The position numbers were made by a program, and so were the translations under genes. This document shows positions 33,229 to 51,699 of a stretch of DNA of 64,000 nucleotides, in pieces. The stretch lies in contig NW_027191459.1 in the NCBI RefSeq assembly GCF_011745625.1, positions 62,001 through 126,000 on the forward strand, read 5' to 3'. The first letter of the stretch is position 1, and each line of letters starts with the position of its first letter. Below the pieces are notes generated by a model. The model was not told the origin of the DNA and searched no databases. It saw nothing but the letters and a program-made list of their open reading frames with translations. The DNA is from Cladosporium halotolerans (Eukaryota).

Positions 33229-34887
33229 TTATTGTGGTCGTAAGAGGAGGAAGAGAAGGCACATCGCCGCTATGCCTGAGGCGGCCCCTTGGAGGGCGAT
33301 GGTGGTCACGTCGACTTGCTTGAGCTGGACGACGCGCTCGCTGAAGAGGTCGTGAAAGGCGGCTTTGGAGATCTCAAGGCGGTCTTCCCACGTTGCTGCT
33401 TTTTGAAGCTGTTCCCACAGCGGTACCGGTGCGGGCTCGGTGATGGGCGTACTCTCCACGGGAGATACTTCCTCCATCACGAGGGGAGGTTCACCGGCCA
33501 TCTCCCTCGTCACATCCTCTGGCGTGATTGCACCGACCGGTTGCTCAATCACCGGCTCAGTCACCGCCTTCACCACGCTCTCGACAGCCTCAACAGCTTC
33601 AACAGGCACGCCCTTGGGCTCCACCACCTCATCAACCTGCTTCTCCACCTCCGAGGCAGCAACAGCGACTTGGTTCTGTACCTGTCCAGGCGCGGCCACA
33701 CCCCTCTCGTCCAAGGCCTCCTTAACCTCTCTTACAATCTTCCTCCTTCTGTACGGCTCAAAGAAAATAATCTGCGCCAGCAACAGGAAGATGTTCACAC
33801 CCATCAGGCCAATCGTCACCCAAGTGCTGTTCCTGCGGATCGTGTCGCTCCAAATTTGCTCCTCATGGTACTGCTTGCGCTCCAACCTCTCCAGCAGCGC
33901 TCGTGAATCCTCCAAATCCCTCTCAGCGGCCGCCAAGTCCTCCTTGGCCTTCTGCACAGCCTGCTCGTCCAAGTGCTCAGAGCGCACGAGCGTCATGTAG
34001 CGCTCGAGGTCGCTCGGCGACCAGCTGCTCTTGCGCTCCAGCAGGCTGACGATCTCCTTCTGGCTGCTGGCCTGCTTGACGTGCGCTTCCATGTGCAGGT
34101 CCTTCTGCGCGGAGACGGCGAGGTGGCCGGCTTTGACGGCTTTCTCTTGCGCGACGATTTCGGTGCGGAGCGCTTCGATGCCGCTGAAGTCGGTGCCGGT
34201 GTAGGTGTTGATTTGCTGCGAGGCGAGAGTCGCTTTCGTGAGGAGGCTGTCCATGAGGGTGGAGAGGCGGCGGGAGAGGTCCCAGCGTTGCTTTTCGATT
34301 GCGGAGGGGAGGGAGGATAGGCGGGATGCGGGAGTTGACAGTGGCTCGTCGTTGGGCTGGGGCTGGCTCGAGGATGCTGCGGGTTCCGGTTGCTCCGTCG
34401 GGGGCACCTCGTTGTTGGTTTCCAAGGGCGGTGTCGTAGGCTCGGCGCTCGCATCGTGCTGGGTCGCGGACGAGGATAGTGTTGACTCAGGGCCAGCGTC
34501 TGGCTGAGGCGATGAAGCTGCCAGGTTCGGCTCGGGTGCAGGAGGGACTATTGTTGTTGGTTCTTCTCGAGGGGGAGGCGGTTGTAGGTGGATCGTAGGA
34601 GACGGTGTATCTTGCTCTTTCCCGTCCTTCTTGTCATTGTCCAATGCCCTCGCCGACGTGGTGAATGACCTCCCCGCCGTCCTGTAAGAGGTATTCCATC
34701 GCGTCAGGCTCCCCTGCCTCTCATCCTTTCTCAAGACCTCCTTCCGACAACCACGGCATGTCCACTCTCCGCCGAACCTCGCACTGCTGCTAGCCCTCAC
34801 GACTTGCTGTATTCCCGTGACTCTTGCGAACACATGTTTCTGCACATCCTTCCTCAGTAACGCTCCATACCGCACGGCCGGGTTCAT
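33229..34887 (-). CDS. SHE9: Mitochondrial inner-membrane protein She9/Mdm33
   Basis: YTGTDFSGIEALR, SQKEIVSLLERKSSWSPSDLERY, QYHEEQIWSDTIRRNSTWVTIGLMGVN, EPYRRRKIV. Confidence 0.92.
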   Translation of the reverse strand: MNPAVRYGALLRKDVQKHVFARVTGIQQVVRASSSARFGGEWTCRGCRKEVLRKDERQGSLTRWNTSYRTAGRSFTTSARALDNDKKDGKEQDTPSPTIHLQPPPPREEPTTIVPPAPEPNLAASSPQPDAGPESTLSSSATQHDASAEPTTPPLETNNEVPPTEQPEPAASSSQPQPNDEPLSTPASRLSSLPSAIEKQRWDLSRRLSTLMDSLLTKATLASQQINTYTGTDFSGIEALRTEIVAQEKAVKAGHLAVSAQKDLHMEAHVKQASSQKEIVSLLERKSSWSPSDLERYMTLVRSEHLDEQAVQKAKEDLAAAERDLEDSRALLERLERKQYHEEQIWSDTIRRNSTWVTIGLMGVNIFLLLAQIIFFEPYRRRKIVREVKEALDERGVAAPGQVQNQVAVAASEVEKQVDEVVEPKGVPVEAVEAVESVVKAVTEPVIEQPVGAITPEDVTREMAGEPPLVMEEVSPVESTPITEPAPVPLWEQLQKAATWEDRLEISKAAFHDLFSERVVQLKQVDVTTIALQGAASGIAAMCLLFLLLRPQ

Positions 34888-35351
34888 GCTCCAGTAAACG
34901 CAAAGAAAGAACGACAGATATGTAAGTGAACAGCAAGAAACGGTCCCTCGGCCCAGTGTTTAGCAGCACAGCACCAGCAAGCTTCGAAGCCGAAGCACCA
35001 GCGACCGCGGAGCGCGGGCGGGCGGCTCTGCGGCGCCAAGAGGCGAGGTCGAGCGGGCTTGGAGACCCTGGCCCAATGACGCCCGGGCTGAATGTTGCGT
35101 TGAGGAAAAAGGGCAGGGCGATTGCTCCGAGGCGCCTCTGAGGCCAGGACGTCACTCTCAATGCGCGCCCGGACGATTTTTTGGTGGCGCCCGCCCCGCC
35201 ACGTGGGGTGTTTTGGTCGCGATTGATAGACAGTCATACATATCGCTGGACCACTCTTTTCTCCAAACAACATCCCCTGTCAGGAATTACGAGGTCTCAT
35301 TTTTATGCAGTTCATACACATTTTCTTTAGACGCATACAAGACCTGCAAAC

Positions 35352-36430
35352 ATGGCCACCACCGATCTCAAGGCTCTCCGTTTCCCTTTCAAGGATCCCA
35401 AGTTCATCTTCTTCACCGACTTCGATGGCACCATCACCCTGAAAGACAGCAATGACTATATGGTGAGGCGATACGGAACCAATGGCCCATTCCTCCCTAG
35501 GAGTGCATCTTGTACTAACAACCCACCAGACCGACACTATCGGCTACGGTGCCGAGAAGCGCAAGCAGGGCAACAAGGATGTCCTTGACGGCAAGAAGAA
35601 CTTCAGGTATATCGCCTTACGCTTCGAAGCATCGGAAGGCTTGAAAAGATTTAACATTTTCCTCACAGAGACGCTTTCCGCGAGATGATGGACTCCATTA
35701 CCCGTCCCTTCCCGCAGTGCGTCGACTACTTGGTCGAGAACATCACCCTCGACCCCCACTTCAACGAGTACTTCCAGTGGGCCCTGGCCAACAACATCCC
35801 GACTGTCGTCGTCTCCTCCGGCATGACGCCCGTCATCCGCGGTATCCTTCAGAAGCTCGTCGGCCCTGACTGCGACAAGATCGACATTGTCTGCAACGAG
35901 GCCGTCCCGCGTGACGGCAAGTCCCTCGACGAGGAGGGCGGCTGGCAGATCCAGTACCACGATGACAGGTGAGTCGGCCTTCATCTTTTAGTCAGCGTTG
36001 TTCCACTTGCTGACCTCTCCCAGCGGCTTCGGCCACGACAAGTCCCTCACTCTCCGCCCCTACGCCCAGCTCCCCGCCGACAAGCGCCCCACCCTCTTCT
36101 ACGCCGGCGACGGTGTTTCCGACCTTTCCGCCGCTCGCGAGACCGACCTCCTCTTCGCCAAGAAGGGCCACGGTAAGTTCCCGTCCAGCGATTGCTGGCC
36201 TTACGCCCCTTTTTCGCTAACTCCCCATCACAGACCTGATCACCTACTGCGCGCGCGAGAACGTCCCCTTCACCGTCTTCGAGGACTGGAGCAGCATCCT
36301 GGCCACTGTCAAGCAGATCGTCGCGGGCGAGCGCAGCGTGCAAGACGCCGCCTCCCAGGGCTTTGCGGACTACAAGGCTGGCAAGGCGGGCGTTGAGCCC
36401 ATCGCTGCCCTGAATGGCAACGCCAAGTAA
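35352..36430 (+). CDS. HAD-superfamily phosphatase (Pyp1/YNL010W-like, MtnX-like); 4 introns
   Basis: Motif I FFTDFDGTIT, VVVSSGM, GFGHDKS, YAGDGVSDLSAARETDLLFAK; stop TAA at 36428-36430. Confidence 0.9.
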
Positions 36431-38079
36431 ATGCATCTTCTTCAATACATTTTACGTACCACACAAAATTCAAAGAGTTCTAGATCAGCTGGTCTGTCAG
36501 TAGACCTTCGGCAAAGTTTACTGGTACTTCCATTGTCCTGAGGGCTCGCAACCAGGCCCCCAGCGTGACCCGTGCGCCCTTTATTACAGCCAAACATTAT
36601 TACCACAGCGCAAGACTTACGAGGACCGTTATGCCTGGCGGCGTCAACGCGCACAACTACCTTCTCAACCTTCTCGATCTGCGCTCCGCGAGGCCATGAC
36701 AACAAAAGCTGAGGTCCCTGACATGTGAAGGGACTCAGTAGCCCTTACCCAACGAGTGGAGACGCATCCCTTGAAAAAGGCGAGGATCCTCCTCTCCTCC
36801 TTGAAGGCTATCTTCACCATCCGTCAAATTTGGGTGCAAGGCTCCTGAATTCATGAAACAGGCGGAAACACTGAATCTAACGTCTACGAAGACTCTCAAT
36901 CCTTTGTGTTCCGCCCCAATGATCTGAAAGACCTGGGAGAACTGCAGGAGTTCCTTAGAATCGCTAACTTCTTGCGTCCATGGAGCCGCTATTGTCGATT
37001 AAGAAACGGTTCCTGCTGTCAAGGGATCTGAACTGCGGCGTAGGTCGGTCTACCTGTGTAGTATTTCCCGATAGTGATCTTGATCTCAGGCCATATATAT
37101 GGATTATCTAACAATCTCAAGGAAGGAGCTTTTGAAACAACAGGATCACCATCTATTTCCTTCTGAAGATCATGATTTGGAAAAGAGAGAGGTCGATTCC
37201 TCCACGGCGGTTTAAGGTACATCATTTACGAGCGTTACACCACCATACTTAGCACACCTGCACCGCTAAGAGGTTCTGAAAAAAGCCCGTGGTGAACGAT
37301 TTTTTTCCAAAAAAAAAAAAAACAGATCTCCTATCTCTTTCGACCTTAACACGAGGTAAAGAGTGGTCTCGAGCTGCTAAATCCTGTCTGATACGGCTGT
37401 GGCCTTTCAAAACGACAACTTCAAGGAAAAGACGATTTTAAGATACCGTGGATCGCGTCGGCCGCTTGCTAAGGTCACGCCCCGGCGCCACAAATATGTC
37501 GATACGCCCGCCGGCCTCAACGACTCGGGACCTGAGCGTATGCGGGTCTAGGCACCAATCACTCCCGGATCAGGAGAAGACATGGCCTACCAAGGACAGT
37601 AGCCTAGGTAGGGAGCTTTTGTTGTGAAGTCGATTCAACGGCCTTGAGGAGACGGTGCCGGACATTCGCCCGCAGTCGTGCGCAGGGGTCAAAGAAATAG
37701 GGGGACTTACCGCCTCACAGACGCCGCGACGACCGGAGGAGCAACGTTCGCAGACATTGTGCGGACGGTTACATGGACTTCCGAGAGCGATCGAGTTCGC
37801 GTGGCGACGGCAACAGTCGTAGTGAATTTCCCGATAAGCCAGGTCCTCGTCCGAAAGAAGGTAGTCCTCAGTTTCAGCCGTTATCTTGCGAAAAGGGGTA
37901 ACTCTGAAGTGTGAGTGAGAATCTCTGTGATACTAATGAGAACGAAATATATGTGAAACCCAGTGTTGATAATAGTCGACCGTTTGCCTTGAACACACTT
38001 GACCTGGCTACATGTAGTTGTTTAAGGGGCTCTTATTGACGCTGGGTTGATACTGACGACGACGTATCCGCAGCCTGAA

Positions 38080-39110
38080 TCTCACGCCCATGGGTCTACT
38101 AGGTACCGTCAGGTATAAAACCGACGACAAAGGGTATATCACCGAGAGAAAACCCGCCCTCAAATACCGTCACATGTCACAGAAAAGGGTCGTGAAGTCG
38201 TTGAATTTCACGTACATAAAGCTGCTACTGTCAAGCGTAGGTTTAAGAACTGGAAATGTACTGCTGAGAGGAAGGGTACAAGACCGGGTCAGAACACAAT
38301 CAAATGTCAAGGAAGGAATTCGAAGAAACGCGGCATCTCAGGTCCATGGAGCTACTACCATCAGGCACCATTCCATTAACCGGGTTTATATTCCTACGTG
38401 AAGGGGTGCAAGTATTCCGTTAAACATCATCACATGCTACAGAAAATGTGGCAAAAACACGCTCTTCCACGCCCCTGGAGCTGCTACTATCGGGCGTAAA
38501 GCCAAACCCGGGGGGTGTTCTCTTGAGAGAAGAAGCCCGAATCCCTCCCTCCGAGAATGGTCGTGGACGTTGTCGACGGGCAAATGGTGATCGCCAAGGG
38601 CTTCTGGCATGCCCTGGACCACAAGCTCCGTGGAAGCTCATGTCTTTTCGACGGTTTTGTCTATAAGATTACGTCGGGCGTATAGTAGTCTCGGAGGACT
38701 CTTAACATACTCTGGATCATAAGCTCCGTGGAAGCTCAGGTCTTTTCGAAGGCTTTGCCGATAAGATTGCGTCGGGCGAATGGTGATCACCGAAAACTTT
38801 TGGCATGCTCTGGACGATCAGCTGCCCATTCCTTCTCAACAGTCTGGTCTCTACAACTTTCTTCAGACACTGTCACATGTCACAAATTATAGTCAAAAAA
38901 AAAAACAGAGGATCTTCACGTCCATGGGGCTGTTGCCATCAGGCACAGGACTAGGAAACAAGGGTGTGCCACTGAGGGAAAGGGTGTGAGATTACCTTCA
39001 AACAGTGTCACATGACACAAATAATGGTCGAAAAAACACGGCATCTCACGTCCATGGAGCTGTTGCCATCAGGCATAGAATTAGAAAACGGGGTGGTGCC
39101 GCTGAGAGGC
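38080..39110. repeat. Diverged tandem array, ~130 bp unit, ~6 copies (cores near 38081, 38208, 38337, 38467, 38917, 39047), interrupted at ~38540-38850
   Basis: Recurrent core TCACGTCCATGGAGCTG(T/C)T(G/A)CCATCAGGCA(T/C)A and a TGTCACATG motif at ~127-130 bp spacing. Confidence 0.8.
38539..38824 (+). pseudogene. Inverted fragment homologous to the neighbouring SUN gene, ~2.5 tandem copies of ~97 bp
   Basis: 38539-38664 translates ESLPPRMVVDVVDGQMVIAKGFWHALDHKLRGSSCLFDGFV, versus SUN EYLPPRMVVDVVDGQMAINDNFWLALNDKLHGTGVIFDGFV. The last partial copy reads MVITENFWHALDDQL. Confidence 0.9.
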
Positions 39111-39179
39111 AGTGATTCATTGGGTATCTTAACTACCAAAACTCCTCGCTCAATGCATGGGTATCATACCAAAAACCTA

Positions 39180-40997
39180 TCAAAACTCCTCTCCAGTCAA
39201 ACGCAATCTGTACGAACAGGTGTGATCGGCACCCCAATTCGACGTAACCCTGTAGTAAAACTTGCTGGCCGCCAGCTCGATGCTCTCCATGTCCACGAAC
39301 ATGGGAAACGATTGCACCCAGTTCTCGCCGTGGATGTCGTATGTGCCGACGCCGACGCAGACAGACGTGTTGGTAGGCGGCGGCTTCGCTGTGTCCATGC
39401 AGCTGGACATGTCGTAGCGGGTGAACAAGTCGCTGATCTTCTGCCGGTAGATGCTGGCTTGCTCTTCGGAGAACGTCTCGGCCCAGAGCTCGATGTCTTG
39501 CGGGGCAGCTGCGATGCCGCGCGTTCCGGTGGCTGGGACGTGCTCAACGACGAAGCGTTTCGGGGCGATCTTGTGCTCTGTCATCACTGCCAGCTGTGCC
39601 TTGCCCTTGTTTGGTGATTCGGCTGCGCACCAGCAGTCACCAGTCTCGTCCCACTTGATCAGTGCCATGGCTGGAGGGTGTTCACGGCGCTTGCGGGTGC
39701 CGAAGAAGCCGACGCTAGGGATCTTCTGGAGGTTCTGTGCAGTCGGAGACGTGCCGTGAGGGTCAACAACAGCTCCAAGGTTCGGAGAGAAGTAGTTGAC
39801 GGAGCTGATGGCGTCGTAGGTGTTGGCAATGAGGTTCGATTTGGCGAGAATGGCGAGCTGAGTCCTGAAATCGGCTGGCGCGTTCTCGGCGACCTCAAGG
39901 GCGACTTGAGTAGCGACCATACGGGCAGCGCTGATCGCCTCTTGTGTTCCTGCTCGCATCATGGCAGCCATCCGTGTTTCAAGGTCTTTTTCGTTCTGCT
40001 GGAGGAGCTCGTAAATGCCTTCGCGGTCCAGTATGCGACGTTCAGCAAAGGCCGATTCCAACCAACGGAAAGTCGCTTCGCGAGAGACCTCTGCCGCGAT
40101 ATGCTCATTTGCAGAGACAAAACCATCAAAAATGACCCCAGTGCCATGGAGTTTGTCGTTGAGAGCAAGCCAGAAGTTGTCGTTGATCGCCATTTGCCCG
40201 TCGACCACATCAACAACCATTCTCGGCGGCAGATACTCGACAAGAGAAGTGTAGTTGGCTTCCATGGCATCGATGCGGCTGAAGTGCATTATGTTGATGA
40301 CATTCTGTGTGACAGGGTCTGTAATTGCAGGGAGCCCGTCTGCGACCAGGGAGGAATTGTACCTGACCATAAGCCATAGTCTCTCGAGCTCGCCAGGCGG
40401 AAGGTCGTATCCCGGTAAGCCAGCTACGATCTTGAGACCTCGGAAAATTTCATCGCGACGTGCTCCTGCCTTCTGCGGCAGTGAGATATTAGCAGCGATG
40501 ACCAGGAGAAGAGCGCCGACGAGGAGAGCCCAAAGGTTGCGCCAGAGGTAGCGCGGGACGGCGAAGAGGACGGCAGAGAGGGACCAGGTCGAGGGAGCAA
40601 GAAGAGACCAGGGCGAGGGGGTCTCGGCGGGGGTGGCGGCGCGCGGAGCCGCGGCCGGCGGTGCTGGTGGCGTGGGCACCCTCTGGTGCCCCTGGGATTG
40701 AGCAGACCCTTCGTAATGGGCCATGCTCTCCACGACAGTCCCCTGTCGTGGCGTCGATGGCTGCTGCGGCAGCTCCTCTTCGTCCCTGTGGGACTCCTCG
40801 AGGACCGGGGAGACCCCGGCACCGGTACGGCCTGTCGCGAAGGCCTGGTTGAAGTTGGTACTCGCCGCAGCGAGTTGAGAACGGAGATTGGCTCTCCCCC
40901 GGGAGCCGTAGTTGTGTGATTGGCGGATATCCACCGCAGGGAGAGGCGCCGGCGTCGTCTGCCGCGACATCGATCTCGTGTGGCGAGGTGTCGCCAT
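39180..40997 (-). CDS. SUN-domain nuclear envelope / spindle pole body protein (Sad1/Mps3-like), intronless
   Basis: N-terminal SHNYGS motif, transmembrane segment LWALLVGALLLVIAA, C-terminal SUN domain VNYFSPNLGAVVDPHGTSPT...ALIKWDETGDCWCA...VVEHVP...APQDIELW...SNWGADHTCSYRLRLTG. TATA-like TATATAAA about 50 bp upstream of the ATG. Confidence 0.9.
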   Translation of the reverse strand: MATPRHTRSMSRQTTPAPLPAVDIRQSHNYGSRGRANLRSQLAAASTNFNQAFATGRTGAGVSPVLEESHRDEEELPQQPSTPRQGTVVESMAHYEGSAQSQGHQRVPTPPAPPAAAPRAATPAETPSPWSLLAPSTWSLSAVLFAVPRYLWRNLWALLVGALLLVIAANISLPQKAGARRDEIFRGLKIVAGLPGYDLPPGELERLWLMVRYNSSLVADGLPAITDPVTQNVINIMHFSRIDAMEANYTSLVEYLPPRMVVDVVDGQMAINDNFWLALNDKLHGTGVIFDGFVSANEHIAAEVSREATFRWLESAFAERRILDREGIYELLQQNEKDLETRMAAMMRAGTQEAISAARMVATQVALEVAENAPADFRTQLAILAKSNLIANTYDAISSVNYFSPNLGAVVDPHGTSPTAQNLQKIPSVGFFGTRKRREHPPAMALIKWDETGDCWCAAESPNKGKAQLAVMTEHKIAPKRFVVEHVPATGTRGIAAAPQDIELWAETFSEEQASIYRQKISDLFTRYDMSSCMDTAKPPPTNTSVCVGVGTYDIHGENWVQSFPMFVDMESIELAASKFYYRVTSNWGADHTCSYRLRLTGEEF

Positions 40998-41149
40998 GGT
41001 TGTGTGTGTGTCTGGGTGGGAGAAAGTTGTGGGCCGAGTAAAGTTGTTTATATATGCAGGCGCGCGCTTTCGCGGCGGGTACCTTGCATTAGCGCGCGGG
41101 AAGCTCCCGGCGGGGTAGCTTGTTTGAACATGTGCACGCGCTACGGCGT

Positions 41150-42180
41150 GGCTCTCTCGCTGGCCGACCCCTCCTGATAGTTCTACGACTGATGGCATGA
41201 GCACAACACGCTGGAGATACGTCTATTTTTTGATGATTGTCTTGACCGTCTGAGAGCAGCTTCTTCACTGGGCCGACCCCTCCTAATGGATCTACGGCTG
41301 ACGGTATAAGCATAACGCGCTGAAAATACGCCTATTTTTTGATGATTTTCTTGACTATCTGAGAGTCGCTTCTTCACTGGGCCGGCCACTCCTAATAGTT
41401 CTACGACTGATAGCATGAGCACAACGCGCTAGAGATACGCCTATTGTTTAACGATTTTCGGAGGCATTTGGCAGCGCCTTCTTCACCGGATCCACCATCC
41501 CGGGTGTTTCTATGCCTGCTAGCAACAGCACCGCGCGCTGGAGATACGCCAATTTCTAATAATTTTATTTGGGGTCTAATAGTACCTTCTTCACTGGACC
41601 CCAACCCCCCAGGTGTTTCTATACCTGCTAGTATGAGTACCGCGCGCTGGAGATACGCCAATTTCTGATGATATTCTTCAGCATTTAACAGTACCTTCTC
41701 CACTGGACCCAAACCCCCTTAGGTATTTCCGTGCCTACTGGCATGAGTACAACGCGGTAGAGATACGCGTATTTCCTTCTCCATATCTCCTCCACACACA
41801 CGCAACACCTCGTCTGCGCACGCGCAAACCTTCCCAGACGCATTACTCGACCATGACGAATCGCAAGGCAGCTGCCAAAAAGGCGGTCGATACACGGCGC
41901 CGCAACAAGGAGCATTGACAAAGCCACACAAAGAAGTTATGTAAGTGAAGTAAACCCACACAAAGCCACTCAAACAAAGCAGCCGCGCAATACTTACGAT
42001 TCCTCCAGCCTCTGACAGCAGTCGGCTCACCGGATCCATCCCTCCGGATATTTCTATGCCTACTAGTACGAGCACAATTCACTGGAGATACGCCCGTTCA
42101 TAATCATTCTCCCAAGCATTTGACAGCACTCGCTTCACTGCTCCCAGCCTCCAAGCGTTTCTACGGCTGACGGTATGGCC
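41150..42180. repeat. Diverged tandem array, ~108-109 bp unit: 6 copies (41150-41775) plus ~1.5 copies (42005-42180)
   Basis: CTTCTTCACTGG...TTCTA(C/T)G(A/C)CTG...GCGCTGGAGATACGCC recurs, with GATACG cores near 41216, 41325, 41434, 41543, 41652, 41762 and 42087. Confidence 0.9.
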
Positions 42181-42858
42181 ATATGTAGCACACCTGTCTT
42201 GCTGGGGAAATTGCGGGGAGCGTGGGCATCGGCGCGCAGACACCCGGGGTACAGTGTCGCCAAGCGAGGTGAGACGCCCTCTACGGGGACTAGTACTAAT
42301 ATCAGTAGATCAAACCTAGTTTTGACACAGCCAAAGAAATTCTCGTAATCGGGACACTCGGAAGGCTTACACCATTCCGCTAGTGTACGCGCAAAGATGA
42401 GTGGCCGAACCCCAGGTCTCACCTCGCTTGATAAGACTGCAGACTCGCAAGCACCAACCGAGCAGTAGCCGGCGAGCATCTCATTCGGGGGTTCGACTGC
42501 TAAGGTCATAAACAATTTCTGGGGAAAATCTCAAAAATTAAGTTGAGCTTCTCTTACATTTAGCTATACATTTTCTGTATTCTGATTGCCCTTATGTCTT
42601 ACGAGTAAGATGTTCAAAAACGTCGTCTCTGTCAGCTGCCGATGGAATTTGGCGCTTTTGATTCTACACCGCGTGGCAGAGGCCTCCGCCGCTTTCCGAG
42701 AAGGGCGAACAATACGCTTACATGCGCTCAGAGATGAACAATTCCACTTCAAACTGCCTTATACAGCATTGACTGTGAGATTGATCTGGCTCTAAGGGCT
42801 ATATACTGACGTCGATTTTCTTAGTTTGCAAGGCGATCCCCATGTACAAGCGTAAATC

Positions 42859-43057
42859 GGCCGTGTACCAGTGTATCTACTGAGGGCAAGTCCCACGACG
42901 GTTTCCTCACCGACTATGGGTACTCGCCCGACCCGCCCGCAATTGTCGCCTGGAGCATCGCTAACGGCGATGACGATTTCGTCGATGATACTGCCTACGT
43001 TACTGGAGACATCATCTGCCATAGGGAGGCTAAGCCTGGTCAAATCGCCCTACCCAC
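42859..43057 (+). pseudogene. N-terminal fragment of an AA9 (GH61) lytic polysaccharide monooxygenase; His1 lost, frameshifted, truncated
   Basis: GRV/TSVSTEGKSHDGFLTDYGYSPDPPAIVAWSIANGDDDFVDDTAYVTGDIICHREAKPGQIALP follows the AA9 pattern HGxV...G..Y.G....Y...PP...AWS......FV....Y...DIICH..A.PG. Not in the ORF track. Confidence 0.8.
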
Positions 43058-43384: not shown

Positions 43385-43750
43385 GCTCAATTTACGCCTG
43401 CGGGTACTATCTGTTTGTGTTGGAGATACGCTCAATTTTGACAGCCTCACCAGACATGTGACCGCTCTGCTTTCTACGCATGTGACAGCACGCCTTTCAC
43501 TGGACCCATTCTCCCAGGAGTTCCTCTCCCAGGTGTTCCTAAGCCTGCTCATATAAGCACAATGCGCGAGAGGTAGGCGTATTTTCTGGTGAATTTCTCA
43601 AACATTTCGCGACACGTCCTTCATTGGGTCTACCAATCCCAGTATCTTTACGCCTGCGGGTAATACCTCTACGTGTCGTTGAGGGACTCAAACTTGACAG
43701 ACTCTCCAAACATGTGACGGCTCTTCTACGCATGTGACAGCATTTCTTTC
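43385..43750. repeat. About 3 more degenerate copies of the same repeat family as 41150-42180
   Basis: TTGGAGATACGCTC, CTTTCACTGGACCC...CCAGGTGTT, and duplicated TTTACGCCTGCGGGTA and TTCTACGCATGTGACAGCA. Confidence 0.7.
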
Positions 43751-45456
43751 CCCGGAGCCGTCAGGGGACGGACCTCTTCTCGGATTCACTTGACCTTCCG
43801 CTACTTCTACGCACTCTGATCCGAGGTACTTATGCACGTGACAATTCATTCTCACGCCGTGTCGCCGCTCGCGTATTACATCGTCGCTCTTATACTGAAT
43901 CGTCGCTCTCTTACCCACCAGAGGATAGCATGCGTATGGCGATATAGAACGCGAGTGGCAATACGGTAAGCGACACGGTACGCCAGAGGCGATACGGTGC
44001 GCGAGAGGTAGCGAGTTCTACGAGAGGCGGCAAATTCTATCGTAAGAAATTCGAAGGTCGGGTGAATCTGAAGAGAGGTCCGTCGCCTAACAACTCCGCC
44101 TTTTACTAGATCCACCCCTCCTGATGTTCTTCCGCCTGCCGATACCGTCGGAGCAGTGTTCTGTGCGCGCGTCTCGGCGGCCTGAAGCAGCAGCATAGGG
44201 CGCCAGGCGTACCCGCTGGACAACGAGACGCCGATGGAGTACGCTCCCCGATAATACCACACCGCACCCACCCGCCGCTGCATGTGGTGAATGTGATCGC
44301 CGCCTTTACCCGCGGGGTAGGCTACCTAGGTGCCAGGCACTGCTAGGTGGTCCACCGTATTGATTAGTCGCTGGCGGTGCGGTAATGTCTCCGCCGCCGC
44401 GAGCATTTCAGGCGTGAGTGCGTACCACCCGCCTAAGATCTAAGACCCGTTCTTAGGCTGGGTCGGAACTGGATTTACTATGAAGAATACTGGGTCTGGT
44501 CTAATGGCGTTAATACTAGCCACCGGACAAGACCTAGTCGCAAATGCAGCCGGAATTGGTAAAGACTCGAGAATCGATGATGCCGCTGCAACCGACTTTC
44601 GGGAATCTGACCTGGAATGAGCGATGAAGGGGTATTTGCCACGATGAGTGTTTGTCTTCTTGTCGATCGGGAACTGCTCGCCGAAACGGCGGCCGTAGAG
44701 TTTCAACAAATAATCTCTGGCAATCGGAACGCTGCCATAAAAAGCAAATCTGTTGACGCCAGTATAGGTTTCGCGGAACTTTCGGTGCACCGGACAGCAG
44801 TCTTCGTACATCCAGATTAACGCGTGCTAGTATGACCTCCATGCTTTGGAGGGTATGTATTCCCTGATGGGTTTCTGAGGCAAGTGGCACCTCATCGCTT
44901 CACGGACACACTATACCCTTCGCGTTCGTTGGTACAACCTCTACGCCTGGGAGCTTACACTACTTCACTCCGAGTCTTGACACTTGACAAATCCCCTCTC
45001 AATGGGACCAACCCGCTTGATGCTACTCCTGCCGCTGATATGACCTTCGCACTCACTCAAACTTTGGCACGTCGGAGGTTCTCTCCCCATGGGCCGGCCG
45101 CTTCTGGCATTTTACGCATGCTGATATTTACCCTGACGTTCTGAAAATGCAACCAGTGTTCGACCATTCTGCAAAGCATGCGAAACATTGACTCTCAGGT
45201 TGGCGACCTTGTGCTTATCTACCGTAGTCGCGGCAACTTCGACCATCAGCAGTCCATCAAGCTTCAGGCTCTGGATTGGGTCGGGCTGGGCGAACGAGCC
45301 TGAGTCTCAATCCTGGAAAGCGCATGTCAAGGTAGGATCTCCAGAAAAAGTGTGTATATAGCATTCGTGCTTTTTGGTATCTACCACCCATATCCAATGC
45401 TCGTTCGTCATCGTGAGAAAGAAAATAGTCTATGATCTGAACAGCTGTGAGACCGT

Positions 45457-46818
<1,362 letters not shown>

Positions 46819-47369
46819 GGTGTCTTCTTGTATATGCGCGATTGGTACAGCGAAGGAGAGAGAGGCGTAGGCGGAAGCAGCGAGCAAGTCAACAAAAGCA
46901 AGGCTTAAGGGCGGCAGAGGGGGCCAGGTGTTTTATGACAGCAGGGCAGGGTTGCGCGTTTCGCAATGCGACGACGACGACGCATGTGGGGGCGGGGCGC
47001 GGCGGGCAGCGTTCGAGTCCCACCAAAAGTGCCCGGTGCGCGGAATTCATTTAACCTCGCGGGACAATTCACTCGGGGTTTAGCGTCCGCCGTGACGAGC
47101 GGGTAGGGCTGAGACCGACCTCCACTGGGGTCTCTGAGGAAGACAGATGTCGGGAGTAGGTGGAGGAGCATCCCATTGTCAGCATACCACCACCCACATC
47201 CCGGTGCTCTCGACACTCCTCCAACCGATTACCTGATCGGATGCCACGAGCTGTGACGGTGTGAAAGAGCAGGTTGGTGGAAAATAGGCGAAAGCCTCAA
47301 TACCCGGCTCGCGCCATCTCTGAACGCCGGATCTACCTATCTACACCGCTTTCCAACGACCAATTGTCC

Positions 47370-50300
47370 TCACTTGGCAGCATCCAAAGCGGCCTTGATG
47401 GCATCGCAGCTCGCCTTCGCGTCTCCGAACAGCATCTTAGTGTTGGGGGCGTAGAACATCGGGTTCGGGATGTCCGCATATCCACCTTCGATAGTGTCAG
47501 CATTGTTCAACAGCCTAAAAATACTCCGCGGAAGATACTCACTGCCCATGCCGCGCTTCATCACGATCACTTGCTTGCTCTTGTAGGCGTCGATGATCGG
47601 CATGCCTGCGATGGGACTGGAATCGCAGTCAGCAATCTGCACGCTCGAGTTGGTCAGAAGGAGGGATGGATACTAACCTGTCCGGCTCCAAAGCAATGGG
47701 GTTGACTGTGTCGTTCGCGCCAATCACGACGGTAAGGTCCACATCGTCGAATCCCTCCTCGTTGATCTCGTCCATCTCCAGCACAATCTCATACGGCACG
47801 CTCGCCTCAGCAAGCAGCACGTTGCACTGTCCCGGCATACGGCCAGCAACAGGATGAATGGCGAACTTGACCTCGACACCCTGCGCACGAAGTCCAGCAA
47901 CGAACTCCGCGATGGGGTACTGCGCCTTCGCAACCGCCATGCCGTAGCCGACGACGATGACAACCTTCTGTGCGTTGCGGAGCGATTCGACAGTCTCCTC
48001 TATCGTTGTCTTGGTTATCTCGCCCTCGATCTGCTTGGCCTCTTTGTTCGACGGCGCGGGCGCGATGCCGCCAAAGAGCACGTTCGTGAGGCTGCGGTTC
48101 ATCGCCACGCACATGATGTACGACAGGATCGAACCGGAAGTGCCGATTAGCGCGCCGACGGTGGTTAAGATTGGCGAGTTGAGCATGAATCCTTCAGCCA
48201 CGAGGGCAAAACCTGAATAGGCGTTGAGGACTGTGATGACGACTGGCATGTCGGCGCCACCAATAGCGGCTGTTGTGGTGTAGCCTTTCGCAAAGCTGAA
48301 GGCTGTGTTCGCTGCGAGACAGGTTGCGGCGATGGCTGGAGCGCCAGGGGCCATGGTCAAGAACGCTCCCATCGTGGCAACGTTGGCGCCCAGAAGACCC
48401 GTGTTGATCAGATGTCTGCCTGGGAGAATCGTCGGCCTAGAAGACATCTTGCCGGCCAGTTTCATGAAAGCTACAATCGAGCCGGTGAAAGTTACGCCGC
48501 CGATCAGCGTTCCGAGGTATGCTGTGATCATGTGCAGGTTATCCAGGTGTCCCACCGCCGCCATGACGGAGCCGATGCTGGTCAACACTGCAGCTAGACC
48601 GACCACCGAGTGTAGCGCAGCCACTGTCTGCGGCAGGTCTGTAGGCGTGATGCGACGGCCTATCAAGGCTCCGATCAGACTGCCAATACCTGCGACACCA
48701 AGGCACTGGACTAGAGTCTCCGGCGAGAACCCAACAGCGCAAAGTGAAGCCAGCACACCAGATCCGACGCCAAGCATACCAAGCATGTTACCTGCTCTGG
48801 CAGTAGCCTGAGAAGCGAGGCCAGTCAGAGACCCGATGCAAAGCACGCTACTCACCAGATAGCCGGCTTGCACAAGACCAGCCATACCGGTGCTCGCAGC
48901 TGCAACGAAACCGCCACCGAACAGTACAGCCGGCAAAGCGTACAGCCACATGTACTCGGGCGGGTCGGTTGGCCTCCGGAACATGTCCAGCATGCGTTTC
49001 GAGATGACGAAGCCTCCGGAGACGTTGACGAACGCCATCAAGACAGACGCAGCGCCGAGGTATTGTGGGAACGTCTGAGGCAAGTATCCGCCTCCCATAA
49101 TGAAGAAGCCACCAATGCCGACAACGCCTGAAATGGCGTTGGTGACAGACATGAGCGGGCTGTGCAAAGCGGGTGCGACGCCCCAGACGACGCGATAGCC
49201 GATCAAGGAGGCGAGGGAGAAGGTGAAGAAGTTGCTCATGAACAGCGGCCCAGTGAACTTGCCGAGCGCGAGGGCGGCGCCCATGCCACCAGTTACGGTC
49301 GTCACCTCGCGGACTGTTTTCTGCCATGGTGTCACGGCTTTCGGCTCTTCTATAACAACTTCTGCTTTCTTCGCCGCAGGAGGCGCCGGAGGTGCGATTG
49401 GAGGCAGCGCTGGCATCATCTCTCCATTGTACGTGACAATTGACCGGCGGACGACTTCGTCATTTAGGTCGATACCAAAGTGCTTCTCTTTCGGTGACAT
49501 GGACAGCAAGAACTTGGTAATGTTGTTGGAGTAGAGGGTCGATGCTTGGGTGGGCAAGCGCGAGGGAAGGTCGGTGTAGCCGATGACTGTCACACCTTTG
49601 TGCACCGAAAGCTCACCTGGGACAGTGATCTCGCAGTTTCCTCCAGCTTCAGCGGCCAAATCGACAATAACGGATCCAGGTTTCATAGCCGCAACCATCT
49701 CTTCCGTGATCAGGGTCGGCGCTGGGCGGCCCGGAATCAGCGCCGTGGTAATAACCATGTCCACCTCTTTGCACTGCTCCATGAACAGCTTCATCTCCGC
49801 CTCGATGAACTCTTTTGACATCACTTTAGCGTATCCGCCTCCGCCTGAGCCGTCTTCTTTGACATCGACTTCGATGAACTCCGCGCCAAGCGATTGAACT
49901 TGTTCGCGAGCGGCAGATCGCGTGTCAAAGCCTCGAACGATCGCACCCATTCTTCTCGCAGTGGCAATGGCGCTCAGTCCAGCAACGCCAGCTCCAATGA
50001 CCAGAACCTTGCAAGGCGGGATCTTGCCCGCCGCCGTCGTCTGGCCCGTCAAATACCTACCGAAATGATTACTCGCCTCCAGCACCGCCTTGTACCCGGC
50101 AATATTCGCCATGGAGCTGAGCACATCGAACGTCTGCGCGCGCGTGATGCGCGGAATCATGTCCATCGCGAAGCTCGTCAGGCCCTTGCGGCGCATGCTC
50201 TCGACGACGGGCCGGTTCTTCTCCAGCTGCGGCTGCAGCGTGCTGATGATCACGCCGCCCTCGCGGAAGCCCTCGAGGTAGTTGTTGACGCCGATCAGCC

Positions 50301-50736
50301 CGCGCGTCGAGATCCGCGGCGGCCGCACCTTCAGGATGATGTTGCTGTCGTACCACACGCGGCTGGCGTTGACCAGCGTCGCGCCGGCTTCTTCGTACGC
50401 GTGCGCGGGGAATTGCGCGGCGAAGCCCGCGCCGTTCTCGATGAGGACTTGTTTGAAGCCTTTTTTCAGGAGGAGGGCGGCGTTCTGGGGCGTCATGGCT
50501 ACGCGGCGTTCGCCGGAGCGGACTTCGGTTGGCACGCCGATTGTGAGCTCGCTGTAGGGAGTGCATTTTACTGGCTCTGCTTCGGCAGGCGTGGACTGGG
50601 TGGCTCCTTGGGAGCGCTTGGATGCAGTATGAAAAGACCTAGCCGTGGCAAGGCTGGCCGCTCTGGTGATGGTGGAAGGCCATCGTCGAGCTGGTTGGAT
50701 TGCGTGCGACCTCAGAGGTCGCGAACAGGGCCACAT
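47370..50736 (-). CDS. NNT: Mitochondrial proton-translocating NAD(P) transhydrogenase (alpha-beta single chain); 2 introns near the 3' end
   Basis: [86 protein letters not shown]. Confidence 0.96.
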
Positions 50737-51699
50737 GGTGGCCGTTCAAGTGATTATCATGGGCTTTCAGCAAGCTCCTTTCTTCCTCTGACAAGGTCTG
50801 GTTAAGTCTGGCCTGGTCGTGTGCGCGGCCTTGAATGCGTGTCACTGTGAAGAAGGCGTGCAGGACGCAGAAAGCTGCATGCAGCCGCTGTGCAGCAGAT
50901 TATGCACGTACGCGTTCCAGCAAACTGCACGTTCCCGGTGGCCACGGGAAGCAGATCGTCGAGGAAGAAAAGTCGTGGAAGAAAGAGAGGAGTGAGAAGA
51001 GGGAGAGAGTTCAGGTACCAAGTGGCTTGAGGTAACTAGCCGCGCTGCGGCGCGGGACTACGCAATTGCCGGCGAGGCGTGCACAAGACGGTCACATGGC
51101 GCCAATGCTGCGCCGGCTGGTGGTAAACGAGGCTTGGAGAGGGGGAGGTGTGTTGTGTTGGTCGCGCGCGCGGGGTGAGGCGCGTGCTTTGCGGGGGGCG
51201 ATGCGGGGTGTTCGATTTCGGGAAGCCGGCCAGTCTGAGCCTGAGGTGAGAGTGAAGCTGGTTGCGGGAATTGTTGCGGGAATTGTTGCGGGAGGCGATG
51301 TGGTAGTCTTTTACCGCAGTCGTCATCGCATAAGTATGCATGCTTGGAATGGTGGCACTAAGGCTTCTCTTTTTTGCAGTATCGACGGCTGCATCTAGCG
51401 GACAAAGCCCTGTTGGAGCCCAACACACTCCCTCAGAGCCTCTGCGTAGCCACGAGCCCTTCGGTAAGTAAAGCGTCGCCAAAGGTTCCACGGCTGATTG
51501 ATCCGCGACCACATGGCCCGCTCATACCTTTTGTATGATCCGATGAGACCAATCAAGCAAGCTCCGTGTTGCAGGAAGATTTTGTTCGCACCGTATCGGG
51601 GTCGGCACGATGAGTCAATCACTACCCAGAAACCAGCGGCTAGTTCGTAGGAATGCAAAGAACATCTTCATTCAATTGCTCTTAGAACACTCACTCTAT

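Follow-up and report, generated by a model that had tools for sequence, protein, structure and literature searches.

The spacer between the SUN-domain gene of the window (the whole 64-kb stretch of DNA analysed here) and the convergent HAD-like gene contains a short inverted piece of SUN coding sequence. This piece is probably a non-coding relic, in which part of another SUN coding sequence survives as a pseudogene fragment among the debris of an old inverted array and SUN copy. Judged by its divergence pattern, which is that of purifying selection, the fragment appears to descend from a gene copy that is no longer here and not from the present neighbour. It would be an ordinary genomic fossil. 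Its 42 codons suffice to indicate the former existence, and the recent loss, of a second SUN gene or allele that selection had maintained, and they add a small data point on turnover at a gene of the nuclear envelope.

The SUN-derived fragment and the arrays around it

The resident gene lies in a minus-strand open reading frame of 672 codons (39180-41198), which remains open upstream of the ATG at 40997 as far as 41198; this ATG was taken as the likely start because SUN orthologues begin with MATP. A Sad1_UNC domain is found in the C-terminal part of the frame (PF07738, E 3.2e-7, 30.9 bits against a Pfam cut-off of 22). The protein has 49 homologues, many of them with PF07738, and only the two closest, P0001 (99%) and P0002 (87%), exceed 54% identity. 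The product is a SUN-domain (Sad1/UNC-84) protein with a putative role, presumed in the first-pass annotation, as the inner-nuclear-membrane half of a LINC complex. The coordinates of all features are collected in Table 1.

Table 1. Features of the SUN locus and of its downstream spacer, in positions of the window
Feature	Position	Strand	Basis or remark
SUN-derived fragment, copy c1	38539..38664	+	ungapped in-frame match to SUN codons
SUN segment homologous to the fragment	40113..40238	-	direct alignment, repeat search, blastn
98-nt tandem repeat built from the fragment	38574..38823	+	Tandem Repeats Finder (TRF), repeat families D7/D8
Repeat copies	c1 38574-38671; c2 38672-38769; c3 38770-38823	+	c3 partial, first 54 nt
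3' array, three ~130-nt units left of the fragment	38157..38538	+	families D4/D6/D10, alignment A2
3' array, two units right of the fragment	38860..39124	+	TRF and 5'-unit profile
Spacer, 36 nt	38824..38859		between last fragment copy and next array unit
5' array, 109-nt units upstream of SUN	41162..42183	-	TRF; families D1-D5; inverted pairs I2, I5, I6
Resident SUN-domain gene	39180..40997	-	606 codons from likely start ATG at 40997; Pfam match, homologues
Inferred SUN 3' UTR	39089..39179	-	ends at poly(A) site near 39089

The first-pass annotation had described an ungapped match between the fragment and the minus strand of the gene, and our recount agrees with it: 90/126 nucleotides and 28/42 amino acids are identical to the reverse complement of 40113-40238, in frame. 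The further tandem copies that it had reported (about 1.5 copies of ~97 bp) are also present, as c2 is full and c3 has 54 nt (2.4 copies in total), but the period has to be corrected to 98 nt. The fragment corresponds to codons 321-362 of the 672-codon frame, or residues 255-296 from the likely start, and thus covers only 42 of the 606 SUN codons; the alignment begins exactly at a SUN codon boundary, and the homology has an abrupt boundary at either end. Differences from SUN at codon positions 1, 2 and 3 number 8, 10 and 18, and the differing codons comprise 13 synonymous and 14 non-synonymous ones. An inverted pair at 38538-38633 and 40144-40239 (96 nt, 76%) was found independently by repeat search, and against the whole 64-kb window the match reaches E values of 5.6e-17 in blastn and 2.8e-12 in tblastn, so that the homology is far beyond chance.

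The structure is no assembly artefact, because one Logan contig of 121,799 nt from run X1, possibly the very source of the window, spans 37000-43000 with no differences, and because run X5, from another study and a related strain, likewise has contigs in the fragment region, with SNPs inside. Nor is the fragment a gene, and it encodes no parent protein: the frame of c1 has a stop 5 codons upstream and two stops 6 codons downstream, with no ATG at its head, the 98-nt period is not a multiple of three and shifts the reading frame between copies, and c2 contains a stop. In-frame homology to a coding gene is thus combined with truncation and a closed frame, as in gene-fragment pseudogenes. Tandem Repeats Finder placed the amplification at 38577-38815 (period 98, 2.4 copies, 74% matches), with 74/98 positions identical between c1 and c2 and 42/54 between c3 and SUN. 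Over the 56 sites shared by the three copies, which are too few for a codon-position neutrality test after the tandem duplication, c1 has 3 private changes, c2 has 10 and c3 has 1, and the terminal branches of c1 and c3 amount to only 2-5%. The small number of private changes in c1 (3/56) and c3 (1/56) suggests that the neutral phase of the fragment was short.

The fragment sits exactly between two units of a 130-nt array. The third unit on the left reaches its normal end precisely where the SUN homology begins, whereas on the right a stretch that aligns to neither SUN nor the array units (38824-38859) precedes the next units (38861-39106 by Tandem Repeats Finder, period 130, 1.9 copies, 81%). 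Run X5 carries one extra 130-nt unit (joint 39091>38962). Upstream of SUN, the 5' units reach E values down to 1.9e-31 in nhmmer, with further units of this type scattered as far as ~43672 (43527-43622 at E 2.6e-12), and the 5' array is covered by spliced plus-strand RNA-like contigs in runs X2 and X3. A profile of the 5' units in SUN sense matches the plus strand of the right 3' units (39008-39096, E 1.5e-4; 38867-38953, E 2.9e-3) and, more faintly, that of the left ones (38430-38515, E 0.13), and the alignment of array units (A2) has 17 invariant columns. The 3' array is an inverted, diverged relative of the 5' array, in the same inverted sense as the fragment relative to the gene.

The convergent spacer from the HAD-like gene to SUN is ~2.76 kb here and ~0.39 kb in the distant relative L001 (48%), in which neither a 3' array nor a second SUN piece was found. 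Both were also absent from L002 (33%) and L004 (30%), two further loci of the metagenome scan that yielded L001 and in which all loci were distant; the sequence of L003 (55%) covers no more than the initial portion of the SUN gene, so that the comparison comprised the other three loci. Tandem arrays of 88-89-nt units lie upstream of SUN in L001 and L003 as well. Homology of these units to those of the window was considered and rejected: the best match of an L001 profile in the window has E 1.4, a local alignment of the two consensus sequences was equalled by 80 of 500 shuffles, and a shared word noticed by eye (CCAsTGAAGAA) is not significant. The window's array units likewise gave no sign of being a known RNA (Rfam, no match in 36500-43000 at E up to 1) or a structured one (RNAalifold, 11 units in the transcribed orientation, 0 pairs), and no tRNAs were found in the window.

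Constraint signature and origin of the fragment

By the NG86 method, the fragment differs from SUN with pS 0.61 and pN 0.19, giving a pN/pS of 0.32 (bootstrap 0.15-0.60). The first-pass annotation had argued from a bias towards third codon positions that the fragment comes from a once-functional paralogue or divergent allele and not from a recent copy. As evidence, this bias holds in part: the codon-position counts of the whole fragment are weak when taken alone (chi-square P 0.097), whereas in codons 255-270 it is strong, with 8/9 differences at third positions (P 0.001) and 1 of 32 first and second positions differing. The proposed origin itself is borne out by other measures. Four-fold sites are near saturation, as 8/14 differ (JC K 1.08, lower bound 0.36), and yet all 13 residues that are conserved in at least 90% of the family (alignment A1) are kept in the fragment. 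The probability of keeping all 13 under neutral drift falls from 0.05 at t = 0.1 to 3e-3 at t = 0.2, and to 6e-7 if the drift lasted for half of the four-fold divergence (t = K/2); the test comprises 42 codons and 14 four-fold sites and assumes equal mutation rates for both lineages. Transitions and transversions are equal in number (18 and 18). Because the conserved residues survive despite near-saturated four-fold sites, the results support another, selectively constrained SUN coding sequence as the source of the fragment, and not a decayed copy of today's gene.

Comparison with the homologues points the same way. The fragment is identical to P0002 at 33/42 residues and to the resident protein at 28/42, and the 9/42 residues at which c1 departs from P0002 include none of the 13 conserved positions. 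Among the 42 columns, 27 are the same in all three sequences, 6 unite the fragment with P0002, 2 unite the window's protein with P0002, 1 unites the window's protein with the fragment, and in 6 all three differ. When 50 SUN proteins were compared with the 3' flank, P0002 scored best (75.1 bits, in an alignment that overruns the fragment and crosses stop codons), and four distant orthologues (60.5-61.6 bits) scored slightly higher than the window's own SUN protein (59.7 bits). The six columns shared with P0002, together with its best score, suggest that the fragment retains ancestral residues that the resident gene has lost. No full-length protein nearer to the fragment than P0002 was found, so that the proposed source gene is unobserved, and a comparison of the 42 amino acids with longer proteins of the collection gave three candidates, none of them significant, which is weak evidence. 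An acceleration of the resident gene specifically in the duplicated segment, by RIP or conversion, was also considered and rejected, since differences between the window's protein and P0002 are dense over residues 252-345, well past the segment. Polarised changes derived in the window's protein and in P0002 number 7 to 2 inside the segment and 17 to 15 outside, ratios that we judged similar by eye.

We propose the following history. At an early time, a tail-to-tail, inverted duplicate of the SUN locus and its upstream array would have been placed in the spacer that separates SUN from the convergent HAD-like gene; instead of the SUN locus itself, a homologous locus of the same age may have served as the DNA donor in this first step. 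The second SUN copy would then have remained under purifying selection while its synonymous sites and the array diverged, and would have been destroyed recently, leaving 42 codons at the junction of two array units. Slippage or unequal exchange would then have amplified these codons to 2.4 copies with a period of 98 nt, and the middle copy, c2, would have gained RIP-like G>A changes. Two observations count against this history. Array units flank the fragment on both sides, whereas a simple tail-to-tail duplicate followed by deletions predicts them on the left only, so that an extra rearrangement or an insertion into an existing array is needed. In addition, searches of the 3' spacer, among them tblastn over 36420-39180 at E up to 10, revealed no further SUN-like or SUN-upstream-like remnants besides the fragment and the array cores. 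The search for a second SUN locus covered the 64-kb window, and a living paralogue elsewhere in the genome is compatible with its outcome.

A different origin, which we regard as possible but clearly less likely, is that break repair at an array-unit junction brought in 126 or more nucleotides, either as filler DNA or through template switching. The template would have been a living SUN paralogue, a homeologue, a divergent allele or the genome of a hybridization partner, and the 3' array would be older and unrelated to the origin of the fragment. Such an ectopic patch fits the position of the fragment precisely between two complete units with array on both sides and a spacer that holds no other remnants of a second gene; it fits equally a source that is constrained, distinct from the resident gene and closer to P0002 (33/42) than to the resident protein (28/42). 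However, the inverted orientation and the comparable divergence that the fragment shares with the 3' array would then be a coincidence, the fragment is no near-copy of P0002 (9/42 residues differ) and no closer full-length protein was found.

It is very improbable that the fragment is simply a local inverted copy of today's SUN gene that has drifted neutrally ever since. Such a copy could have been made, for instance, when replication switched templates over a distance of 1.5 kb, and its third-position excess would be caused by selection on the gene side only. It would have come from the nearest possible template by the commonest type of event. The codon-position test of the whole fragment gives little contrast (8/10/18, P 0.097), and the pN/pS of 0.5-0.6 that neutral drift of such a copy should produce is just reached by the upper bootstrap bound (0.60). 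Nevertheless, 13/13 conserved residues and 1/32 first- and second-position changes, alongside 8/14 differing four-fold sites, have a probability of at most 3e-3 for any t of at least 0.2, and the terminal branches of c1 and c3 (2-5%) are short.

The SUN transcript and the silencing question

An X2 contig covering 39089-40523 carries, before 39089, a loose end of 15 letters, TTTTGTTTTTTTTTT, that does not match the genome there; we read these non-templated letters as the poly(A) tail of the minus-strand SUN mRNA. An RNA-like contig of run X3 stops at 39116. Runs X2 and X3 were taken as RNA because their contigs contain GT..AG joints that are missing from the X1 DNA contig; the RNA evidence thus consists of contigs assembled from these two runs, which belong to a single study. 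As the RNA-like contigs over SUN are colinear with the DNA, the gene appears to be without introns. Its mRNA ends within the last 130-nt unit of the 3' array, and because the poly(A) site lies there, the two complementary arms would normally not be present on one RNA. According to the proposed history, the fragment would today be without effect on SUN, whose message is polyadenylated ~265 nt short of it. The X2 and X3 contigs do not cover 37000-39088, which we counted as no evidence, and rare, low-level or stage-specific read-through is invisible to data of this kind. Other loose ends of X2 and X3 contigs, at 42495, 42532, 41540 and 40777, match nowhere in the window, and the positions next to two of them, 42496 and 42533, lack a GT donor as judged by eye.

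These data bear on the suggestion of the first-pass annotation that the fragment forms a self-targeting hairpin and leads to siRNA production or meiotic silencing, which we now disfavour. Under this model, a SUN read-through transcript or a plus-strand RNA of the fragment would pair with SUN codons 321-362 and feed Dicer, resulting in siRNA/milRNA-type or meiotic silencing of SUN; the locus would then be the fungal counterpart of small-RNA loci that arose recently by inverted duplication. The capacity to fold back that had been claimed for the arms is real: if both are placed on one RNA, the folding energy is -155.4 kcal/mol against -78.5 +/- 4.1 for shuffled sequences (n=200, z = -18.9), and 103 intermolecular pairs form between the arms. 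In addition, passages of a paper on plant loci of the same architecture describe small RNAs arising from them (PMC1790633), and strain X5 has kept the fragment as well, although this is expected anyway at 95-99% overall identity. The annotation had reasoned that SUN transcripts ending before ~38830, with no RNA mapping to the fragment, would speak against silencing; the poly(A)-type end of the X2 contig, at 39089, indeed falls between the two arms. It had also worried that ~71% identity may be too low; overall identity is 71-76%, no helix exceeds 18 bp, and the longest stretches in full agreement with SUN measure 16, 11 and 10 nt, too little for a perfectly matched 21-nt siRNA. Furthermore, G>A changes and a stop have eroded c2, and neither a consensus structure nor an Rfam family was found in the region. 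The arms could thus form a stable foldback, whereas the X2 and X3 contigs do not have both arms on one transcript and there is no stretch of ~21 nt with near-perfect complementarity to the target mRNA. On balance, we regard the hairpin as very doubtful.

Also very improbable is a combination in which two tail-to-tail SUN genes with their arrays were kept for a long time in this Dothideomycete lineage and their debris now makes a conditional read-through foldback, 126 bp long and imperfect, that acts on SUN mRNA in cis. If this were true, read-through past 39089, as in sexual development, under stress or upon weak 3'-end processing, would join arms and arrays on one RNA, and the locus would be a fungal proto-milRNA/hpRNA locus caught early. 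It is hardly credible that an unannotated plus-strand gene uses the fragment as an exon or small ORF, with a peptide still under selection. Although c1 keeps all the conserved residues, stops lie 5 codons before and 6 codons after it and it does not begin with an ATG; the reading frame is also lost from copy to copy through the 98-nt period, and a stop interrupts c2.

Relation to known systems

Among known systems, duplicated (non-processed) pseudogene fragments and relics of inverted segmental duplications are closest. The fragment shares with them a short, sharply bounded coding piece inverted near its relative, the lack of a usable ORF, the embedding in repeats, secondary tandem amplification and a copy number that varies between strains. 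Unlike such relics, it seems to have experienced purifying selection during most of the period after its separation from the neighbouring gene. As a caution, a third-position bias in a gene fragment can be put to a formal test instead of being judged by eye.

Among fungi, a silencing hairpin would have stood out, but the RNA data at hand speak for the opposite. In the relevant passages of Fahlgren et al. (2007; PMC1790633), plant small-RNA loci derived from inverted duplication have both arms within a single transcription unit close to a promoter, and small RNAs were observed. The present locus resembles them in having an inverted partial gene copy nearby and arms that are able to fold back. 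It differs in that the arms lie 1.5 kb apart with a poly(A) site between them, are 71-76% identical and belong to a fungus; moreover, the plant loci rest on observed small RNAs, whereas this one is known from sequence and contigs. Pseudogene-derived siRNAs have been found in mouse oocytes. Endogenous siRNAs of this kind are also the subject of a rice survey (PMC2708354) and of a report on human psiPPM1K (PMC3616710). The idea is shared, in that a pseudogene placed antisense or inverted to its founder gene might regulate the latter by way of dsRNA, but those systems rest on mapped small RNAs and pseudogene transcription and the present one on a relation between sequences. A more open question than the fragment is posed by the arrays that bracket SUN in inverted orientation, the upstream one being transcribed.

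RIP is a process of point mutation in filamentous ascomycetes that acts on duplicated DNA and causes C>T/G>A changes in a CpA/TpG context; it is usually said to need repeats longer than 98 nt. Unlike what RIP would be expected to leave, only one of the three copies is affected (a tiny sample) and the resident gene segment is without matching damage. The likeness lies in c2, whose 10 private changes comprise 5 G>A and 1 C>T, with 4 of the G>A changes being TpG>TpA and all on one strand. Over 37500-38499, the RIP indices are 0.95-1.10 for TpA/ApT and 0.81-0.92 for (CpA+TpG)/(ApC+GpT).

Inverted and tandemly repeated SUN fragment

Positions 38539-38664 (+) match the reverse complement of 40113-40238 without gaps, confirming the ungapped alignment of the first-pass annotation (90/126 nucleotides and 28/42 residues identical). 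The alignment begins at a codon boundary of the minus-strand ORF 39180-41198, which encodes a protein with a SUN domain (Pfam Sad1_UNC, E 3.2e-7) and probably starts at the ATG at 40997, as orthologues start with MATP; similarity is lost abruptly at both edges of the fragment. When the entire 64-kb window was searched, the match had an E value of 5.6e-17 by blastn and 2.8e-12 by tblastn, and a repeat finder recovered it independently (pair I1, 96 nt, 76%). Misassembly does not explain the arrangement, because a 121,799-nt Logan contig of the DNA run X1, which may be the source of the window itself, covers 37000-43000 with 0 differences, and contigs with SNPs within the fragment region are present in X5, a run of a related strain from a different study.

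The tandem copies noted earlier after the fragment are also present (38577-38815, 2.4 copies, 74% matches; Tandem Repeats Finder), with a period of 98 and not ~97. As 98 cannot be divided by three and the second copy, c2, contains a stop, the tandem copies were never coding. Within the part common to the three copies, c2 carries 10 private changes, 5 of them G>A and 4 of these in TpG>TpA context, all on one strand; they look like repeat-induced point mutation (RIP), in numbers too small for a claim.

Features of the SUN locus and its surroundings (L001, the SUN locus of a relative)
Feature	Position	Strand	Remarks
Gene past HAD-like gene	33235-34935	-	Also syntenic with L001
HAD-type phosphatase-like gene	35352-36420	+	Convergent with SUN
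3' array, left part	38157-38538		Downstream of SUN; three ~130-nt units
Copy c1	38574-38671		
Copy c2	38672-38769		
Copy c3	38770-38823		Initial 54 nt of unit
3' array, right part	38860-39124		Downstream of SUN; two ~130-nt units
5' array	41162-42183		Upstream of SUN; 109-nt units
Scattered further 5' units	43393-43438, 43527-43622, 43630-43672		Upstream of SUN
ORF	45457-46900	-	Upstream of SUN; presumably UDP-glucose-4-epimerase-like, from reading of its translation
ORF	47629-50745	-	Upstream of SUN; presumably transhydrogenase-like, from reading of its translation

Selective history of the fragment

Over the whole fragment, the excess of differences at third positions is weak (8/10/18 at codon positions 1/2/3; chi-square P 0.097), and the 27 codons that differ from SUN comprise 13 synonymous and 14 non-synonymous ones. 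Formal testing strengthens the signal considerably. Nei-Gojobori estimates are 0.61 for pS and 0.19 for pN, with a pN/pS of 0.32 (bootstrap 95% 0.15-0.60) and a dN/dS of 0.18. In codons 255-270, third positions hold 8/9 differences (binomial P 0.001), and only 1/32 first and second positions differ. The constrained positions, fixed in advance, were the 13 columns with ≥90% conservation in a 16-sequence alignment of SUN family proteins (A1). The fragment retains 13/13 of these residues despite differing from SUN at 8/14 fourfold sites (JC distance 1.08, lower 95% bound 0.36), and the proposal that it derives from a once-functional paralogue or divergent allele was therefore a correct guess. Under neutral drift since leaving today's gene, the probability of retaining the 13 residues is 6e-7 at half the JC distance; for t = 0.2 it rises to 3e-3, and for t = 0.1 to 0.05. 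This retention in the face of fourfold divergence means that the neutral phase of the fragment was short, and the few private changes at shared sites of c1 (3/56) and c3 (1/56) are consistent with this. Most of the divergence between the fragment and SUN arose with purifying selection still acting on both.

Comparison with P0002, a related SUN protein (87% identity), points in a similar direction. Across 42 columns, the resident protein, the fragment and P0002 are all the same in 27 and all different in 6; the fragment agrees with P0002 in 6, the resident with P0002 in 2 and the resident with the fragment in 1. To judge from these alignments, the fragment preserves ancestral residues that are now gone from the resident SUN. 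When 50 SUN proteins were compared with the 3' flank, the top score went to P0002 (75.1 bits, partly due to an alignment that continues beyond the fragment across stop codons), and four distant orthologues (60.5-61.6 bits) scored slightly above the window's own SUN protein (59.7 bits). The fragment differs from P0002 at 9/42 residues, 0 of them at conserved positions; it does not closely copy P0002 either, and its source would thus be a third, constrained SUN lineage. Protein searches found no full-length protein of this lineage.

A special acceleration of the resident SUN within the duplicated segment was considered and rejected, as differences from P0002 are dense over residues 252-345, well past the segment. 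The resident SUN and its 99%-identical relative P0001 lack 7 residues that P0002 shares with each of the 12 other orthologues in the alignment (40239-40260, minus strand; A1 columns 407-413), four residues ahead of the fragment-matching segment.

Tandem arrays and the origin of the fragment

The only large tandem repeats of the 64-kb window are those that bracket SUN, and no other SUN-like pieces or copies of array units were found elsewhere in it. A profile of six 5' units in SUN-sense orientation matches the plus strand of the 3' array at 39008-39096 (E 1.5e-4), 38867-38953 (E 2.9e-3) and 38430-38515 (E 0.13); the inverted pairs I2, I5 and I6 and the alignment of array units (A2) likewise link the two arrays. 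The arrays are thus related and mutually inverted, and the fragment stands in this same inverted relation to the SUN gene. In A2, the third left-hand 3' unit reaches its normal end exactly at the start of SUN homology and the next unit begins 36 nt past the last fragment copy, so that the fragment block lies at the junction of two complete units. Copy number of both arrays varies, because contig joints of X5 imply one additional 130-nt unit in the 3' array (39091>38962) and extra repeat sequence in the 5' array (95 nt back at 41196-41290). The open frame 40998-41198 of the SUN ORF extends into the 5' array.

In L001 (48% protein identity), the HAD-like gene is likewise convergent with SUN on its downstream side, the spacer being ~0.39 kb as against ~2.76 kb in the window, and neither a 3' array nor a second SUN piece was found there. 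Two distant relatives, L001 (2705-3823) and L003 (55% identity; 3-1264), have arrays of 88-89-nt units in about 12-14 copies directly upstream of SUN. Units of the two loci are clear homologues of one another (E as low as 1.5e-17) and do not significantly resemble those of the window, so that the shared upstream placement is either positional conservation or coincidence. Contigs of X5 break at 37871/37872 with unlike sequence on either side (loose ends 255 and 18 letters long), a structural difference between strains in the spacer. The non-coding flanks on either side of the SUN locus, 37500-38499 and 43500-44499, have RIP-like dinucleotide ratios (TpA/ApT 0.95-1.27 and (CpA+TpG)/(ApC+GpT) 0.81-0.92; whole window 0.58 and 1.23).

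We consider it probable that the fragment is debris of an inverted second SUN locus. Such a locus, array and gene, would have occupied the interval from SUN to the HAD-like gene, or been copied into it, in inverted orientation, and would have remained functional for a long time. Its recent destruction would have left 42 codons at the junction of two array units, and these would later have been amplified into 2.4 copies. This reading is weakened by three points: array units flank the fragment on either side, no other remnants were found, and no source gene was observed. Its main rival is a repair patch, copied from a paralogue, homeologue or divergent allele at another site into an array already in place; this is possible and clearly the less likely. 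A plain neutral copy of today's SUN gene is improbable, because the constraint test, with 13/13 residues retained, disfavours it.

Transcripts and the silencing hypothesis

We infer that X2 and X3 are RNA runs, since their contigs cover the region partially and carry GT..AG joints, such as 41940>42009, that are absent from the X1 DNA contig. Over the 5' array their contigs cover 41346-42532 and contain a 68-nt plus-strand GT..AG intron (41941-42008), which indicates that a spliced transcript divergent from SUN traverses the array; no convincing ORF, Rfam match or consensus structure was found in this array. X3 contigs have a second joint, 41630>41682. Plus-strand contigs of X2 and X3 also run past 42495 and 42532 into 29-30 letters absent from the whole window. 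Neither break has a GT donor, and the extra letters could stem from a distant exon, from chimeric contigs or from a difference between strains.

SUN contigs end at 39089 in X2 and at 39116 in X3. The X2 contig carries 15 additional letters, TTTTGTTTTTTTTTT, that mismatch the genome at that place and are a poly(A) tail when read on the minus strand, which places the 3' end of the SUN mRNA at 39089, ~91 nt past the stop codon and ~265 nt short of the fragment, on the basis of assembled contigs from one study in which rare read-through would not be visible. The site falls within the last 3' array unit (39089-39124), so repeat DNA now appears to provide the 3'-end signals of SUN.

The first-pass annotation had proposed a self-targeting hairpin or silencing of SUN, and had named SUN transcripts stopping before the fragment as evidence to the contrary; the X2 contig, read as RNA, ends in just this way. 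If both were on one RNA, the fragment and SUN arms could pair, as their predicted cofolding energy is -155.4 kcal/mol compared with -78.5 +/- 4.1 in 200 shuffled controls; the predicted duplex has 103 pairs, and its longest helix without interruption is 18 bp. The longest runs identical to SUN are 16, 11 and 10 nt, so no 21-mer of the fragment perfectly matches the SUN mRNA. Also against the mechanism, stops close the reading frame of the fragment at both sides, and neither Rfam families in the region nor a consensus structure of the array units was found. The architecture of the fragment and SUN is like the inverted-duplication model for the origin of MIRNA genes in plants (Fahlgren et al. 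2007, PMC1790633, who cite Allen et al. 2004), and like the pseudogene-derived endogenous siRNAs of PMC2708354 and PMC3616710. The fragment differs from plant MIRNA and endogenous siRNA loci in two tested features of hairpin small-RNA loci, having neither two arms on one transcript, to judge from the assembled contigs, nor ~21-nt complementarity. The fragment is thus real and its origin as first guessed, whereas the proposed silencing function is unsupported and, as an explanation of the locus, improbable. An unannotated exon is scarcely credible; by kind, the fragment is a duplicated pseudogene fragment.
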